The position numbers were made by a program, and so were the translations under genes. A stretch of DNA of 64,000 bases from an uncultured Gammaproteobacteria bacterium. Lineage in GTDB: Bacteria; Pseudomonadota; Gammaproteobacteria; GCA-001735895. Shown in pieces: positions 26,431 to 31,846 of the stretch. The first letter of the stretch is position 1, and every line of letters begins with the position of its first letter. The stretch covers positions 57 to 64,056 of the forward strand of contig CAWIHJ010000015.1 in NCBI GenBank assembly GCA_963835795.1, written 5' to 3'. The notes under the pieces are model-generated. The model was not told the origin of the DNA and did no database searches. It was given only the letters and a program-made list of their open reading frames with translations.

Positions 26431-27217
26431 TCATTCGAATTCGGGCTTGCGCTTGTCGAAGAATGCCTGGATTCCTTCGCGCCCGTCGGGCGAGGCCGCG
26501 CAGCGTGACAACAGCTGCCCTTCGAGTTCCATCTGCGCCTCGAGATCGTTGCCGGCGCTCGCCAGCAACAGCTTGCGCACGTAGGCGTGCGACAGCCGCG
26601 CACCGTCGGCGAGTTCTGCCGCCAGGCGATCGGTTTCCGCCTGCAGCTCGGCATCCGCCACCACCCGGGTAACAATGCCGATTTCACAGGCCTCGGCGGC
26701 ACTCAGCGTTCGGTTGCTCAACATCAGTTCCTGCGCCCGACGCAGACCAACCAGCCGCGGCAGGTAATAGCTGGAGGCGCCATCCGGGCACAGACCGGCG
26801 CGGGTATAGGCCATGGTGAAGCTGGCCGACTCGGCGGCGAGCACGATATCGCCGATCAGCGAGAAACTGAAACCACCACCTGCGGCGACCCCGTTTACCG
26901 CGACAATCAATAGCGCCTGCATGCGCGACAGGCTCGTGATCGCGGCGTGAAAGTCGTCGGCGAGCGCCTGCGCCGCGTCACCGATGGCATCGCCGTGTGC
27001 CAGCATTTCCCGGAGATCGCCACCGGCGCAGAAGAATCGGCCCTCGGGCGCTGAGCACCACTACCTTGATCTGCGGGTCGTCATCGCATTGCCGCGCCGC
27101 CCGTTTCAACTCGCTGGCCGTTTGGCTGTTCAGGCCATTGGCCGCCTCGGGCCGGTGCAGGGTAATGCGCGCGATCGCGCCCTGCTGTTCAAAAATAATG
27201 CATTCGAATTCGTTCAT
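26431..27217 (-). pseudogene. Enoyl-CoA hydratase/isomerase family protein with one +1 break (~27047, in a G3/C3 run).
   Basis: ORFs 26978..27268(-) and 26431..27006(-) join: MNEFECIIFEQQGAIARITLHRPEAANGL...VVVLSA | GRFFCAGGDLREMLAHG...VNGVAAGGGFSF... Confidence 0.8.
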
Positions 27218-27298
27218 GGCTGTGGCACGCTTACCGCATCGTTGAATTTTGAATAGTGCATAATACACAACCCCTCACGCCTGTTACAGGAGCGAATC

Positions 27299-27589
27299 AT
27301 GGCTGCATTTCTAATCGTCGATACGGTGATCGAAAACGCCGAAGAATACGAAAAGTACAAGGCGCTGGCCAAACCCATCGCGGAGAAATACGGCGGTGTG
27401 TACCGCGTGCGCGGCGGTGACATGGATGTGCGCGAAACCGACCTGTGGTCACCAACGCGCATGGTGATCATCGAGTTCCCCGACATGAAGTCCGCTCGCG
27501 CCTTCGCCGATTCAGAAGAATATGCCCCGGTGAAACCGTTGCGCCGTGACAATGCGCGCTGCACGCTGGTGATCCTCGAGGGCGTGTAA
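27299..27589 (+). CDS. DUF1330 domain protein.
   Basis: 96-aa ORF MAAFLIVDTVIENAEEYEKYKALAKPIAEKYGG...VIIEFPDMKSARAFADSEEY, matching my recollection of the DUF1330 pattern. Confidence 0.75.
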   Translation: MAAFLIVDTVIENAEEYEKYKALAKPIAEKYGGVYRVRGGDMDVRETDLWSPTRMVIIEFPDMKSARAFADSEEYAPVKPLRRDNARCTLVILEGV

Positions 27590-27847
27590 GCGCAGGTAGT
27601 TCACCGTAACCGACTTCAGCTCAACTCCATGCGCCGAATTGCTGCCGGGTGCAAATGTTCTAACTGTCAATGTTCGCAGGCGTCGCGGCGCGCGAACGCG
27701 GTTTGCAGGATTTGCAGCGCATCGCCGTGCGACACCAGCAACAGGCAGCTACCGGAATAGCGCTGTTCGAGGTCGATAATCAATTCGGTGACCCCTGCCA
27801 TCACCTGGTTGGGGCTTTCCGTCTGCCGATAATCACTGTCGGCATTG
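27551..27847 (+). repeat. Left copy of the ~297-bp imperfect direct repeat (3' end of DUF1330 + spacer + 3' end of the histidine phosphatase).
   Basis: Manual ungapped alignment to 31182..31478 (offset 3631) gives about 22 mismatches and no indels. Confidence 0.85.
27616..27847 (-). pseudogene. Truncated duplicate of the histidine phosphatase C-terminus (about 77 codons, with an acquired TGA).
   Basis: The minus strand reads ...NADSDYRQTESPNQVMAGVTELIIDLEQRYSGSCLLLVSHGDALQILQTAFARRDACEH*QLEHLHPAAIRRMELS*. The full gene reads ...NADSDYRQTESPNQVMARVTELIIELEQRYSATCLLLISHGDALQILQTAFARRDVREHRQIEHLHTAEIRRMDLS*. Confidence 0.8.
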
Positions 27848-27850
27848 GGG

Positions 27851-27900
27851 AGTTCCCCGGGACACAAACCCTCCTAGTTCCCCGGGACACACACCCTCCT
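27851..27900 (+). repeat. 2 x 25-bp tandem repeat AGTTCCCCGGGACAC(A/C)ACCCTCCT at the left junction of the insertion.
   Basis: Direct reading; one mismatch between the units. Confidence 0.8.
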
Positions 27901-28319
27901 GGACACGGATTCCAAAGGTTCTGAAATACGAAAATTAACTTAGGAATAACATTTGAGTGTGTGTCTCATGCCTGGCAAGCGCCACGGGCCGAATGCCATT
28001 CCACGGGGTGCTTGGCGCGTTATGCCTTTCCGCTTACGCCCGCGCTGCGCAATATTCCGGCACAGGGGCGATTTCATCTGAGCGTATTTCTCGATGCCCG
28101 TAAGCGATCGAATTAATTGCTATACGAGCCAGTCGGGCAACACGCGCCGGGGGTAAAATACCGTCCGTGACAGAAACATCCCGGGCCGAAATGAAATTTA
28201 AATAAACGGTTTATTGCGCATGTCGCTTGTGAATACTGCTCTATACTCAATTGATTATCATAACTATTTCAGCGAAAACGGTATCGACTGATTCTCGCAT
28301 AGAGCATTTCCACCTTTAT

Positions 28320-30722
28320 ATGGCAAAACTGGGTAATATTTTTTTTGGTAGAACACTAAATCAGTTTCTCGAGTGTCAGGACCCGGGAAGCCGTAAGGGC
28401 ATGGCTCTGGCTAATAAAATCAGGGAGGCGGCCGGCGATAACCTGGAAAAGATACTGGAATCGATTACCCAGGCAGGCGACCCGCATAGCGAGGTGCTGA
28501 AAAACATCTGTCGCGAGTCGGTCGAGGGTTTTTCGGAAGAATATTTTCTGGATGTGCTGTCACACGAAGAGACCGTATTTCGTGCCGCCGCCAGTGACAT
28601 TCTGTCGCATAAAGCCACGGTTGATCCTTCCAAACTGTTCAAGCGTCTACACGATCGCAAAGTTTCCCCGGCCGAGGTTATCGCAGTACTCGATGCACAA
28701 AAGCATCTGTTAAAGCCGGAAGACATTATCAACCACTCGTTAAAACTGGAAGCGGATTACGCGATAGACCTGTTAAAACTGGTCGAAGGTAGCGAGCAGC
28801 CTGTCGATTTATCGAAATTGAGCTTTCAGCTCGACAAGGCCCAAAGCCCGGCTTACAAGATTAACCTGTTGAGTTATTTCGGTAGTGTTAACCAGCCCGG
28901 GATCCCGTTGATAGTAGTTCGCTTTTTAGATGATTCCAACAAGGTCGTCGTTCTCGAAGCGCTCAAGACCCTGGATCGAATGAAAATCGATTTCGATGTG
29001 TCGGTGCTGCTTCCCTATACCGAATCGATGTCAGGTGTTGAGCTACAGCTGGTGCTCAAGATTATCGCCAAGCAGGCCGACGCCAGCCTGGTACCCCATC
29101 TTTCGGGTTACCTGACTTCGAAGTCGAGCGAACTGAACGATTTTTTTGCACGCATTATCGTTGCCAACGCAGACCGGGATACCCTTGAAGAATTTCTCAA
29201 GCGCCTGAGTATCGAAGACGACTGGACCCTGCAGCAAGTGATCGCTTGCTTACAAAAATTTTCCAGTGAAACCCTGTCCGAAGTCGCGCGTGAACTGACC
29301 GACCATGAAGAGGAAGTCGTGCGTAACGCCGCGCAGATGCTGGTAGTCAATCTGATTGGTAAAGAAGATCTCGATAAAATAGAGGAATTTGCGCTCAATG
29401 AAAATTGGCAGGTCCGCGAACGTGCGATCCAGTCACTGTCCAAGTCGACGAACCGAAGTGCACTGACCATCATCAAGAAAATGGTCGAGACCTACCCCGA
29501 TGATTACTTGCTGGCTTTGCGCGCGGTCAAGCGGCTTGGCTTTGGCAAAGGCCTCGAAATCGCTTTCCAGGGTCTAAAAAATTCAGAGGCCAACGTACAA
29601 CGCGCCTCGCTGGAGACGATCGAGGCGATCACCACCGAAAAGCACGCCACCAACGTACGCGACAATTTACTGTGGAGCCTGCCGATGCTGACCACGGAAA
29701 TGCGGGAATTCGCGAAGATGGTGATGTCACAGATCACCAAGGATTTCAATTTGCCCGATATTGAGATTTACGCAGATTCAAACACCGGTTCCGGCGTGGT
29801 TGATGTTTCTCTGTTTACTGGCGGAACCGGCACGATTGTCAGGCCGGATGAGAGCATGTCACCGCTGGACAGGCTCAGCCCCGGCGAGGTTTGGATGAAC
29901 CGTTATCACATCAAGGAAGAGATTGGCCGGGGTGCAATGGGGCGCGTCATGCTGGTCGAAGACGACATGGTCGATGAGTTATTAATATTAAAATTCATGC
30001 TGCCCGCGCTTACCCTGGACCAGCAGTCGACCGAACGCTTCAAGCGTGAAGTCAAGTACGCCCGCAAGATCAGCCATCGCAACGTGATTCGTGTGCACGA
30101 TATTCTGTTAATGGACGATGTCTGCGCGATTTCGATGGAGTATTTCAGGAGCCGCGGACTTGAGACGGTTCTGGCAAAGTTCAAGAGTTTCGAGACCCTC
30201 GAAGGACTCAAGATCATGTACCAGATCGCCAGTGGCATGGCGGCGGCGCACGAACAGGAAGTCATACATCGTGACCTGAAACCCAGCAACATCCTGATCG
30301 ATGACAACTGGCTGGTGAAGATCGTGGACTTTGGTATTGCCTCGGCCGGCACCGCTTCGGAAGCGACCCTGACCCAAACGGGTTCGATAATTGGCAGCCC
30401 GGCCTACCTGGCACCCGAGCGTGCCGAGGGCAAAGATGCCGACGAGCGCAGCGATATCTACTCGTTGGGGGTTATCGCGTATTACATTTTCAGCGGTCAG
30501 TTGCCGTACAGCGGCAAGCCGATGGAAGTGCTGTCGAAACATCGCGAGGGGAACGCGCCTCCGATTGTCAAGATAAAGGATGGCGCCTCGCCCGAGGTTT
30601 CCCGCCTGATTGTAAAAATGATGGCAGTTGATCCGACCGCACGCCCGCAGACGATGGTAGCGGTACGCGACGAAGTGGCGGAACTCGTCAAGTTGTTCAC
30701 ACTGCCCGATACAATCTCGTAA
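28320..30722 (+). CDS. HEAT/ARM-like repeat protein with a C-terminal Hanks-type Ser/Thr protein kinase domain (about 800 aa).
   Basis: ORF 28251..30722. The first ATG (MAKLGNIFFG) is at 28320. Kinase motifs: IGRGAMGRV, LILKF (catalytic Lys), IHRDLKPSNILI, VDFGIA, GSPAYLAPE. The N-terminal ~540 aa is helical and repeat-like, with segments such as DHEEEVVRNAAQMLV and NENWQVRERAIQSL. GC content is visibly lower than the flanks. Confidence 0.85.
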   Translation: MAKLGNIFFGRTLNQFLECQDPGSRKGMALANKIREAAGDNLEKILESITQAGDPHSEVLKNICRESVEGFSEEYFLDVLSHEETVFRAAASDILSHKATVDPSKLFKRLHDRKVSPAEVIAVLDAQKHLLKPEDIINHSLKLEADYAIDLLKLVEGSEQPVDLSKLSFQLDKAQSPAYKINLLSYFGSVNQPGIPLIVVRFLDDSNKVVVLEALKTLDRMKIDFDVSVLLPYTESMSGVELQLVLKIIAKQADASLVPHLSGYLTSKSSELNDFFARIIVANADRDTLEEFLKRLSIEDDWTLQQVIACLQKFSSETLSEVARELTDHEEEVVRNAAQMLVVNLIGKEDLDKIEEFALNENWQVRERAIQSLSKSTNRSALTIIKKMVETYPDDYLLALRAVKRLGFGKGLEIAFQGLKNSEANVQRASLETIEAITTEKHATNVRDNLLWSLPMLTTEMREFAKMVMSQITKDFNLPDIEIYADSNTGSGVVDVSLFTGGTGTIVRPDESMSPLDRLSPGEVWMNRYHIKEEIGRGAMGRVMLVEDDMVDELLILKFMLPALTLDQQSTERFKREVKYARKISHRNVIRVHDILLMDDVCAISMEYFRSRGLETVLAKFKSFETLEGLKIMYQIASGMAAAHEQEVIHRDLKPSNILIDDNWLVKIVDFGIASAGTASEATLTQTGSIIGSPAYLAPERAEGKDADERSDIYSLGVIAYYIFSGQLPYSGKPMEVLSKHREGNAPPIVKIKDGASPEVSRLIVKMMAVDPTARPQTMVAVRDEVAELVKLFTLPDTIS

Positions 30723-30753
30723 GGCCTCCTCGAACAGAGGTTGTGCGACGATT

Positions 30754-30905
30754 TCAGCCCAGCGATTGCAGCGCAGTCAGTGCGATCAGGTTATAGACAT
30801 CTTCCGTGTTACAGCCGCGTGACAGGTCGTTGGCAGGGCGATGGCTAACTCCGTCACCAGTGTGGGGTCGCAGCTCGTCACGCCCTTACCGGCACTATCC
30901 AACCA
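30754..30905 (-). pseudogene. Orphan GC-rich C-terminal gene fragment (unknown family) with an internal frame break.
   Basis: The minus strand reads ...GKGVTSCDPTLVTELAIALP | ANDLSRGCNTEDVYNLIALTALQSLG*. There is no upstream coding continuation. I could not place the family. Confidence 0.3.
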
Positions 30906-31040
30906 AAAAATAAGGGGATTAAATTTTAATCCGCCCCTTTTTCGTCCCCTTTTTCTTGCGCGGAATAAATTCACCAGATTCAATTACTCATTTAGCAGTT
31001 ACTCCGGATCATCTAACTGAGTGCTTGTGTGAAGAGGACA

Positions 31041-31098
31041 ACCCGGGCCTGAGAGCGATCGTTTTCAAATATAGAAACGATCGCTCTACGGCCCGGGT
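31041..31098. repeat. Long inverted repeat/hairpin with 24-nt arms (22/24 paired) and a 10-nt loop.
   Basis: ACCCGGGCCTGAGAGCGATCGTTT-tcaaatatag-AAACGATCGCTCTACGGCCCGGGT. No T-run follows. Confidence 0.75.
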
Positions 31099-31181
31099 AG
31101 CTTACGGTTCAAGTTGCACCGTTTCACCGAAATTCAGGCGTACCAGCCCGATTTAATCGAATAAGGATTCCTCCCACGGAT

Positions 31182-31478
31182 ATTGCACGCTGCACGCTGG
31201 TGATCCTCGACGGTGGATAAGCGCAGGTAGTTCACCGTAACCGACTTCAGCTCAAATCCATGCGCCGAATTTCTGCCGTGTGCAAATGTTCTATCTGTCG
31301 ATGTTCGCGAACGTCGCGGCGCGCGAACGCGGTTTGCAGGATTTGCAGCGCATCGCCGTGCGAGATCAGCAACAGGCAAGTAGCGGAATAGCGCTGTTCG
31401 AGCTCGATAATCAATTCGGTGACCCGCGCCATCACCTGGTTGGGGCTTTCCGTCTGCCGATAATCACTGTCGGCATTG
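31182..31478 (+). repeat. Right copy of the ~297-bp imperfect direct repeat.
   Basis: See the left copy. It contains a 3' DUF1330 remnant (...IARCTLVILDGG*) and the genuine 3' end of the phosphatase gene. Confidence 0.85.
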
Positions 31479-31846
31479 ACCGCATCCTGTTCCCAGACCG
31501 CTGCGTAGCCACTGTCGGCGCCGAGTTCAAGATCACCGAAGTAGCGCTCGCGCAGGCGAACATCGGTTTCGATCGCAGGCCCTGCACCCAACCACTGGCG
31601 CGCAATGGCCGCGGTTTCGACGGCGCGGCTGAAATCGGAACAGACGATAATCGTCGTGGCATCGAGACCCGTGTCCTGGTGCAAACTGGCCTGTACCTGC
31701 CCCCGCCCCTCGTCGCTCAGACCATATCCCGAGCAGCCATTATCGGGGTGGCTGACAATTATTCCCTGTTGATTGGCCAGACTGTGGCCGTGGCGCATCG
31801 CAAAATAACGGTTCCCAAGATGATTTAGAGCAGAAAGATGATTCAA
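31247..31846 (-). CDS. Histidine phosphatase family protein (phosphoglycerate mutase-like).
   Basis: 199-aa intact ORF with the N-terminal catalytic RHG motif (YFAMRHGHSLANQ) and a later SHGDAL. Confidence 0.85.
   Translation of the reverse strand: MNHLSALNHLGNRYFAMRHGHSLANQQGIIVSHPDNGCSGYGLSDEGRGQVQASLHQDTGLDATTIIVCSDFSRAVETAAIARQWLGAGPAIETDVRLRERYFGDLELGADSGYAAVWEQDAVNADSDYRQTESPNQVMARVTELIIELEQRYSATCLLLISHGDALQILQTAFARRDVREHRQIEHLHTAEIRRMDLS

Follow-up and report, generated by a model that had tools for sequence, protein, structure and literature searches.

The soluble Hanks-type kinase PknG of Mycobacterium tuberculosis carries a helical-repeat domain of the TPR type C-terminal to its kinase domain as well as a rubredoxin-like N-terminal module, and it acts on the FHA protein GarA. 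PpkA, Fha1 and PppA constitute the threonine-phosphorylation pathway of the Pseudomonas aeruginosa type VI secretion system (T6SS), with PpkA being a membrane kinase whose kinase domain is N-terminal and whose vWA domain is periplasmic. Helical repeats of another kind, the prokaryotic PBS-HEAT repeats, provided the basis for the design of the alphaRep proteins. Here we analyze a gene for an 800-residue protein in which a solenoid of HEAT repeats is followed by a C-terminal Hanks-type Ser/Thr kinase domain. The gene lies in a 64,000-nucleotide stretch of contig CAWIHJ010000015.1 from an uncultured gammaproteobacterium, and this whole stretch is called the window below. Taken together, the evidence favors, though not overwhelmingly, reading the protein as a cytoplasmic signaling HEAT-kinase with a docking solenoid, whose gene is a laterally copied paralogue of a genus clade that we term clade A and not a stand-alone phage-defense gene.

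The kinase reading frame is on the forward strand and ends at position 30722, with a TTG at 28251 and an ATG at 28320 as candidate starts. The ATG was taken as the start because orthologues open with the same MAK(L/I)G residues. The Pfam Pkinase model (PF00069) aligns with residues 529-783 over 1-259 of its 263 profile positions (E value of 8e-50; 170 bits against a cut-off of 31.7). The catalytic motifs comprise the Gly loop G536-RGAM-G541 (G536, G538 and G541), Lys558 in LILK, the alphaC residue E577, HRDLKPSN at 650-657 (H650-R-D652-L-K654-P-S-N657), DFG at 670-672 (D670-F-G672), APE at 698-700 (P699-E700) and the subdomain XI Arg R775, and a PknB-like TLTQTG activation loop is present at residue 683. 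All motifs listed in the initial annotation, which was made from the DNA letters only, are located where it had placed them, and the catalytic residues are invariant across alignments of 30-34 homologues. With every catalytic residue in place the kinase is, judging from its sequence, probably catalytically competent, as had been suggested. The absence of a transmembrane (TM) segment and a signal peptide is likewise borne out, as the highest Kyte-Doolittle window of 19 residues in the whole protein reaches 1.22 and neither a signal peptide nor a recognizable secretion signal was found in it. The window protein is thus a soluble, predicted cytoplasmic Hanks Ser/Thr kinase of the RD type with a complete catalytic motif set.

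A profile search of the kinase domain against the PDB returned kinase matches with E values of 1e-42 to 1e-34, the best being Stk1/PknB (4eqm; 1.5e-42), followed by StkP and the M. tuberculosis kinases PknB and PknA. These PASTA-type kinases provide the closest solved kinase domains as well as the best NCBIfam match (251 bits), and the window protein shares with them the RD type, a TxTQTG-type activation loop and all catalytic motifs. However, 251 bits is well short of the 450-bit cut-off of the PASTA kinase model (NF033483), only the kinase part is aligned, and the window protein has neither a TM helix nor PASTA domains; it is predicted to be cytoplasmic, with its kinase domain at the C-terminus behind a HEAT solenoid of 480 residues. 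The likeness to PknG consists of a soluble kinase, a helical-repeat interaction domain and an FHA partner, the latter being encoded in the ancestral HEAT-kinase cluster that is described below. There is, however, no sequence relationship to PknG outside the kinase core, and in the window kinase the repeats are of the HEAT type and N-terminal.

The inverted architecture given in the initial annotation, with helical repeats first and the kinase C-terminal, is recovered by both Pfam and the structure models. Pfam HEAT_2 and HEAT match at residues 263-374 (54.8 bits against a cut-off of 27.7, and 23.8 against 23.5, respectively), and AlphaFold (AF2) models with a predicted local distance difference test score (pLDDT) of 82-83 show a 29-helix solenoid over residues 1-480 (pLDDT 82.9). 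Both the linker that follows and the activation loop of the kinase are disordered in these models, and the linker is also the least conserved stretch across the homologue alignments. A low predicted template modeling score (0.44) indicates that, in the models, the solenoid and kinase halves have no fixed packing against each other. The proposed solenoid of about 540 residues therefore stands as to its HEAT/ARM type, but its length falls to about 480 residues ahead of a disordered linker at 483-513. Foldseek matched the solenoid to PP2A PR65, importins, AP2 and alphaRep with low TM-scores (0.15-0.26), and a profile search matched alphaRep at 1.5e-18. Structure prediction and the Foldseek and PDB profile searches of this region thus yielded generic HEAT/ARM scaffolds only, with no characterized or sensor domain and no domain of known role. 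Like PR65 and the PBS-lyase-type HEAT proteins, the N-terminal 480 residues consist of tandem helical hairpins, but only the repeat type is held in common and there is no association with a lyase or a phosphatase. The window gene is a member of an uncharacterized group of Hanks kinases fused to repeat scaffolds.

The gene had been described as an orphan, a description that does not hold. Its own assembly contains three full-length copies, which are the window copy on contig C15 and paralogues on C105 (59% identical) and C118 (46% identical). A word-indexed search returned more than 388 homologues, scores of them full-length and 57-79% identical, all from uncultured Gammaproteobacteria. Among the named records are marine-sediment metagenome-assembled genomes (MAGs) and gutless-worm symbionts, one being the Olavius algarvensis Gamma 3 endosymbiont. 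Genomes across the genus contain full-length homologues, usually in two copies, and a match at least at the level of the kinase was obtained in 38 of 41 relatives. In the first of two contexts, that of clade B, the gene order is rluD–pgeF–clpB–kinase–bolA (own kinase–bolA pair at C118:3735-6480), with bolA directly downstream of the kinase in 19 of 20 genus genomes. The kinase-bolA pair is also found in two deeper metagenomic relatives (L082:6001-8708 and L084:6001-8733), with a 4-bp overlap in one of them, and adjacency to clpB was rejected as a universal context of the family since it is confined to the genus and its near relatives. In the second context, that of clade A, a hydantoinase gene and a small ferredoxin-like gene precede the kinase, which is followed by a convergent pta and then pntAB. 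This order is present in at least 12 genus genomes, and in the genome under study the clade-A slot is filled by the C105 copy. In the family tree, clade A, including the window gene, is sister to the bolA-linked clade B of the genus with a support of 98, and the group that also holds the bolA-linked P0127 and P0132 has a support of 100. The window gene belongs phylogenetically to this BolA-linked HEAT-kinase subgroup. At the level of the family, homologues are syntenic chromosomal genes of ordinary GC content in housekeeping contexts, and such a finding was what the initial annotation itself had named as speaking against an accessory or defense gene.

Beyond the genus, the solenoid leads to a much wider family. 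A HMMER search with the solenoid alone against 1.84 billion representative proteins gave only 200 matches, and the distant ones are collinear proteins of about 800 residues with 16-32% identity, none of which has a name. All ten distant N-terminal relatives that were sampled combine HEAT repeats with a C-terminal Pkinase domain in about 800 residues. When 400 genomes drawn evenly from the class were scanned with a solenoid profile, 51 of them, representing 41 of 320 genera (~13%), gave matches, which are mostly single-copy and lie in open frames of about 780-860 residues. With an operon-linked member of this set the window protein can be aligned over its entire length (28% identity over 808 columns, E value of 1e-101). 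The window kinase is therefore part of a widespread, unnamed family with a fixed layout of about 800 residues, HEAT solenoid first and kinase C-terminal.

The distant members have gene partners of their own. In all five well-assembled distant genomes the kinase gene is followed by two genes for T2SSE/PilT-like ATPases of about 360 residues, with abutting or overlapping stops and starts, and of the 41 distant genomes whose coordinates were compared, about 39 have the orthologous ATPase pair immediately after the kinase. Those genomes also hold a separate pair of the pilT/pilU type elsewhere. A full-length orthologous FHA protein is encoded after the second ATPase in about 16 of 35 genomes, and a small DUF6812-like protein precedes the kinase in four of the seven loci examined. 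The cluster DUF6812-like–HEAT-kinase–two PilT-like ATPases–FHA is seen at loci L070-L078 (for example L074:5332-11149 and L072:5548-11447), and none of the HEAT-kinase clusters examined showed a PP2C phosphatase. The PpkA–Fha1–PppA pathway offers an analogy for this ancestral cluster in that a Hanks kinase and an FHA adaptor lie beside, and control, an ATPase-driven machine. However, that machine is the T6SS and not a PilT-like ATPase pair. The family-wide tree separates the PilT-linked kinases from the bolA-linked group, within which clade A of the genus is nested. A literature search, which covered few subscription journals so that absence from it is no proof, found no description of an N-terminal-HEAT/C-terminal-Hanks kinase family, a kinase–PilT-like–PilT-like–FHA cluster, DUF6812 or a kinase–bolA operon. 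Both the kinase family and its gene clusters appear to be undescribed.

These contexts suggest a sequence of events and a mode of action. In most lineages the kinase gene comes first in a cluster with two PilT-like ATPase genes, often with an FHA gene after them and a DUF6812-like gene before the kinase. In the lineage of the window genus the PilT-like partnership was lost and the kinase gene came to lie ahead of bolA (clade B), with a subsequent duplication into the hydantoinase–kinase–pta site giving rise to clade A. As to the mode of action, we infer as most likely that the solenoid docks other proteins and in this way recruits substrates or regulators, and that the kinase, once switched on by phosphorylation of its TLTQTG activation loop, phosphorylates the docked partner or partners. 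Candidate partners would be the PilT-like ATPases and the FHA adaptor in the ancestral clusters, and BolA or proteins acting with BolA in the window lineage. The extra copy in the window might add or modify a signaling input, most likely by duplicating or modifying the clade-A function.

How the window copy reached its present position can be read from its surroundings (Table 1). The backbone of this chromosomal region, which runs from an SDR gene and an enoyl-CoA hydratase (ECH) gene to a histidine-phosphatase gene and phnD, is syntenic in relatives, and the cargo of the interval between ECH and the phosphatase differs between species. In G004 this slot contains a Na/Pi cotransporter gene. 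In G002 (C140, L016:2691-5893, corresponding to window positions 27600-31250) it contains genes for a 767-residue protein, which has a C-terminal OmpA/MotB-like domain, a match to the ZorB hidden Markov model (HMM) at 2.5e-24 and weak matches of coiled-coil type, and for a 299-residue protein that is MotA/ExbB-like with a weak ZorA-like match. The phosphatase orthologues of relatives lie beside phnD at 2.7-6.7 kb from ECH/SDR and never beside the HEAT-kinase gene. The slot is thus a hot spot for cargo.

In the window the cargo is a 2.87-kb piece (27972-30842) that was copied from a congeneric species group, namely from its hydantoinase–ferredoxin-like–kinase–pta locus. It contains a 3' stub of the gene upstream of the kinase, the native leader, the kinase gene and a 3' stub of pta. 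That the segment was copied from this locus follows from the stubs of both syntenic neighbors flanking the kinase, the transferred segment being delimited by the ferredoxin-like stub on the left and by the pta stub on the right. The ferredoxin-like stub retains the last part of a gene of about 222-228 codons. It is 58% identical over 45 residues to the C-terminus of the 228-residue C105 open reading frame (ORF) by blastp (E value of 2.7e-17) and also aligns at the DNA level with the syntenic locus of G002. The proximal leader aligns with the region upstream of the G002 gene, with which it shares a TCTATACT box. The pta stub translates to RPANDLSRGCNTEDVYNLIALTALQSLG followed by a stop, as compared with the Pta C-termini of C105 and G002, and its orientation is convergent, as is native at the syntenic locus.

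In a maximum-likelihood tree the window gene nests with the syntenic copies of G002, G015 and FCS_Gamma_010 (a worm-symbiont MAG) with an SH-aLRT support of 98. In the same tree the C105 and C118 copies each pair with G006, which is the species signal, and the phosphatase flanking the insert on C15 is also closest to G006. The donor is therefore placed in another species group of the genus, because the window gene nests with G002 and G015 and its flanking phosphatase with G006. The tree also rules out an in-genome duplication of the C105 copy as the source. The window gene is consequently the third copy in its genome and a xenologue of clade A. Its identity to the nearest relatives does not exceed 79%, with synonymous divergence (dS) of about 1, so either the donor is unsampled or the transfer was not recent. 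The insertion may have come about through a single crossover of the Campbell type, or through duplication and subsequent insertion. The evidence for a translocated cassette is independent of binning.

Table 1. Features of the kinase gene, the insert that carries it and its host flanks (positions are those of the window; aa, amino acids; nt, nucleotides)
Feature	Position	Strand	Evidence or remarks
HEAT-solenoid / Hanks Ser/Thr kinase gene	28320-30722	+	800 aa
HEAT/ARM-type alpha-solenoid, aa 1-480, 29 helices	28320-29759	+	AF2, Foldseek, profile, Pfam HEAT_2
Disordered Gly/Ser/Thr-rich linker, aa 483-513 (~35 residues)	29766-29858	+	pLDDT <50 in both models
Hanks-type kinase domain, aa 529-783	29904-30668	+	Pfam Pkinase, PDB profile, motifs
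Intact DUF1330 gene, left host flank	27299-27589	+	Pfam DUF1330, E 1.9e-27
Left copy of 300-nt direct repeat (DUF1330 3' end, spacer, histidine-phosphatase 3' end)	27548-27847		Repeat search
Histidine-phosphatase pseudogene fragment, aa 122-199, one in-frame TGA	27619-27852	-	82% aa identity
25-bp tandem duplication at left junction	27851-27900		Repeat search, 96%
~96-nt element with inverted termini GGGACACACAC…GTGTGTGTCCC	27876-27971		91.7% over 96 nt to C71:72896-72991 (blastn)
Ferredoxin-like gene remnant, last ~45 codons	27961-28116	+	blastp, DNA alignment
Native leader/promoter region carried with the kinase, GC 0.44	28117-28319	+	Alignment to G002 upstream region
pta remnant, last ~27 codons, convergent with the kinase	30767-30842	-	88% over 74 nt to C105 pta 3' end (blastn)
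AT-rich non-coding filler with hairpins	30843-31178		GC 0.485
Right copy of 300-nt direct repeat	31179-31478		92% identical to 27548-27847
Intact histidine-phosphatase (His_Phos_1) gene, right host flank	31247-31846	-	Pfam E 1e-24

Whether the copy has been kept, or is a redundant and decaying duplicate or an artefact of assembly or binning (a recombination scar, a strain-mixture chimera or a silent copy becoming a pseudogene), can be judged from substitutions and from public sequencing runs. The surroundings are scarred by gene stubs, the 25-bp tandem duplication, a stop-bearing pseudogene fragment and a frameshifted ECH gene nearby, and further core genes of the MAG (ClpB and hydantoinase) are frameshifted as well, all of which speaks for decay or artefact, as do the lack of a recognized promoter or ribosome binding site and the thin public coverage that are taken up below. 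However, all 800 codons remain in one open frame although the branch of the window gene has accumulated about 0.15-0.18 substitutions per site, and the ratio of nonsynonymous to synonymous substitution (dN/dS) against the nearest relatives is 0.116-0.128, compared with 0.09-0.11 among the syntenic orthologues. A dN/dS of about 0.12 indicates that the function has been kept, and both the catalytic and the family-invariant solenoid residues are retained. The left junction (27672-27866) is matched identically by contigs X1 and X3 from two other, public runs, and stubs on both sides of the kinase are not what mis-assembly of the syntenic locus could produce. Additionally, contigs from RNA libraries cover the gene. 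Those from two metatranscriptome runs, with about 96% identity, represent the leader from position 28142 onward and a large part of the gene, and one contig covers 28142-28387. We therefore regard decay or artefact as an unlikely account of this copy. One of these metatranscriptome contigs (run X5, 765 nt, ~96% identity, window positions 30249-30842) follows the 3' end of the kinase gene and the pta stub to exactly position 30842 and then continues into sequence that is absent from the genome under study. It represents this end of the cassette in other surroundings, or else the contig is a chimera. The alternative flanks taken from public contigs found no match when searched against this genome.

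A number of observations weigh against the interpretation of the window gene as a functional, laterally copied signaling kinase. The genome is a MAG that is 79% complete with 3.75% contamination, and the presence of three copies in one cell depends on its binning. No public contig covers the right junction, and the sampled words present in any one run amount to 22% at most. The RNA contigs are of low depth, come from a relative of about 96% identity and may in part reflect DNA carried over into the libraries. Upstream of the kinase neither a consensus promoter nor a Shine-Dalgarno sequence was found, and a scan of the cassette for sigma-70 promoters and terminators gave nothing above shuffled expectation on the coding strand. 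The N-terminal (solenoid) dN/dS is slightly raised in the window copy (0.164 versus 0.114). There is no bolA downstream of the window copy, where the pta stub is followed by non-coding DNA. The window genus lacks the kinase-linked ATPase pair, as its PilT-like genes match at the canonical level only (45-46% identity), and neither the DUF6812-like gene nor the cluster FHA was found in the genome under study, the only genome of the genus searched for them. Given the MotA/MotB-like pair of G002 that matches ZorAB HMMs, the slot may also be a hot spot for accessory or defense cargo. Lastly, functional statements for any member of the family are inferences.

The initial annotation had raised the idea that the gene acts as a single-gene anti-phage kinase, next to a plain regulatory role that it considered equally possible. 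Following the logic of Stk2 and PD-T4-6, the solenoid would sense a phage protein and the kinase would phosphorylate host or phage targets and thereby abort the infection. That the gene was acquired laterally, forms a self-contained single-gene cassette and lies in a variable slot would suit such a role, as would the MotB/OmpA-like and weakly ZorA-like proteins encoded in the G002 slot. The PADLOC kinase models score high as well (PD-T4-6 at 3e-73, mad6 at 1e-65 and Stk2 at 6e-24), and the Hanks kinase domain is indeed common to Stk2, PD-T4-6 and MAD6, of which Stk2 and PD-T4-6 are single-gene systems. However, this likeness is confined to residues ~522-791, a generic kinase domain, with no defense model matching the solenoid, and in NCBIfam MAD6 reaches 158 of the required 460 bits while PglW and other defense equivalogs miss their cut-offs by a wide margin. 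Nearly every genome of the genus has the family at syntenic chromosomal positions, in contexts that are housekeeping or regulatory, and no integrases, transposases, restriction genes or other defense genes lie beside family members at the loci examined. The conserved or ancestral partners are PilT-like ATPases, FHA and BolA and not defense or mobile-element genes. The solenoid is under purifying selection (dN/dS of 0.09-0.16) and does not show the diversification typical of arms-race sensors. The phage-defense idea thus finds no support and is very unlikely, and a plain regulatory role is the better reading in view of the regulatory and housekeeping contexts and the purifying selection.

The occurrence of close homologues in the O. 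algarvensis Gamma 3 endosymbiont and in other worm-symbiont MAGs could alternatively point to an effector that acts on, or is delivered into, an animal host in the manner of the Legionella LegK-type kinases, the more so as HEAT/ARM repeats and Hanks kinases are classic "eukaryote-like" modules. However, most carriers are free-living marine-sediment MAGs from dozens of families, the protein has no recognizable export signal, and the conserved operon partners (PilT-like ATPases, FHA and BolA) are cytoplasmic bacterial proteins. The NCBIfam LegK1 model gives 41 bits against a cut-off of 550. A host-directed role is therefore extremely unlikely.

The base composition of the locus had been described as that of a low-GC insertion, which overstates the case. 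The GC content of the kinase gene is 52.2% compared with a genome mean of 57.2%, or the 7.7th percentile of 2.4-kb windows. GC at second codon positions (GC2) is 0.35, in the 2nd percentile, while GC at third positions (GC3) is 0.64, in the 21st. Because GC2 is extreme while GC3 is ordinary, the low GC is mostly a matter of amino acid composition. It is largely a property of a helical protein rich in Leu, Glu, Lys and Ile, to which AT-rich non-coding filler is added. Both paralogues in the same genome (C105 and C118) have 54% GC, and the G002 orthologue shows the same mild dip relative to its own flanks. A foreign low-GC island is thus largely rejected, given the ordinary GC3 and the like depression of paralogues and orthologues in their own genomes.

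Within the insert proper (27848-31178) the kinase is the only ORF of more than 150 residues, so its description as the only intact gene of the insertion stands for this interval, with the intact DUF1330 gene adjoining just outside; the last 42 nt of that gene fall within the left direct repeat. As had also been noted, the single-gene insertion contains no PP2C or FHA partner gene. The ORF list and repeat search revealed no transposase, integrase or short target-site duplication at the insert. A transposon, insertion sequence or integron cassette was rejected, since there is no transposase or integrase and the insert is bracketed by direct repeats of 300 nt that consist of the ends of host genes. 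Scans for tRNA genes and Rfam elements across the whole window were empty, and the lack of a tRNA gene rules out a tRNA-linked island. The filler to the right of the pta stub contains a hairpin with 24-nt arms at 31041-31098 and a GGGG…CCCC-framed palindrome with T runs, and blastn found no match to the filler elsewhere in the genome.

For the window gene itself the outcome is deflationary, as it is an extra, laterally copied paralogue of a signaling kinase that is typical of its lineage. The cassette nevertheless provides a clean natural case of a regulatory gene moved between congeneric species together with its own leader and the stubs of both neighbors, and it informs how signaling repertoires expand in uncultured sediment and symbiont bacteria. 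The gene partnerships, namely of the kinase with two PilT-like ATPases and FHA in dozens of gammaproteobacterial families and with bolA in this lineage, give testable hypotheses on the targets of HEAT-kinases. They also draw attention to an unstudied pair of PilT-like ATPases, different from the genes of the pilT/pilU type in those genomes. A more ambitious interpretation, which we put forward tentatively and consider rather doubtful as a whole, is that the HEAT-kinases constitute an undescribed signaling module in which a motor distinct from canonical pilT/pilU, formed by a dedicated pair of PilT-like hexameric ATPases, would be under the control of the kinase, in many cases accompanied by an FHA adaptor and a DUF6812-like protein. 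The kinase would have been rewired in the window lineage, first to BolA and then by duplication, and the window would record its interspecies spread as a self-contained 2.9-kb promoter-plus-gene cassette with no recognizable mobile-element machinery.

Several minor observations concern the remainder of the genome. Core genes are split at three places in this MAG, with ECH in two frames (window positions 26431-27268, reverse strand), ClpB in three frames (C118:6593-9194) and the hydantoinase gene interrupted by an in-frame TAG (C105:7854-9870). These are either indel errors of the assembly or real decay, and they caution against the use of broken neighbors as evidence for an island. Three tandem genes for PilT-like ATPases at C29:14344-17657 are 36-50% identical to the kinase-linked pair of other lineages and apparently represent the genome's own canonical cluster of the pilT/pilU type. 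The ~96-nt element at the left junction could be a repeat resembling a miniature inverted-repeat transposable element or a structured RNA. Its second copy in the genome, on C71, is flanked by a Ser/Thr kinase gene and an FHA gene, with an hcp-like gene in the vicinity, and a third context for it is found in the public run X2.

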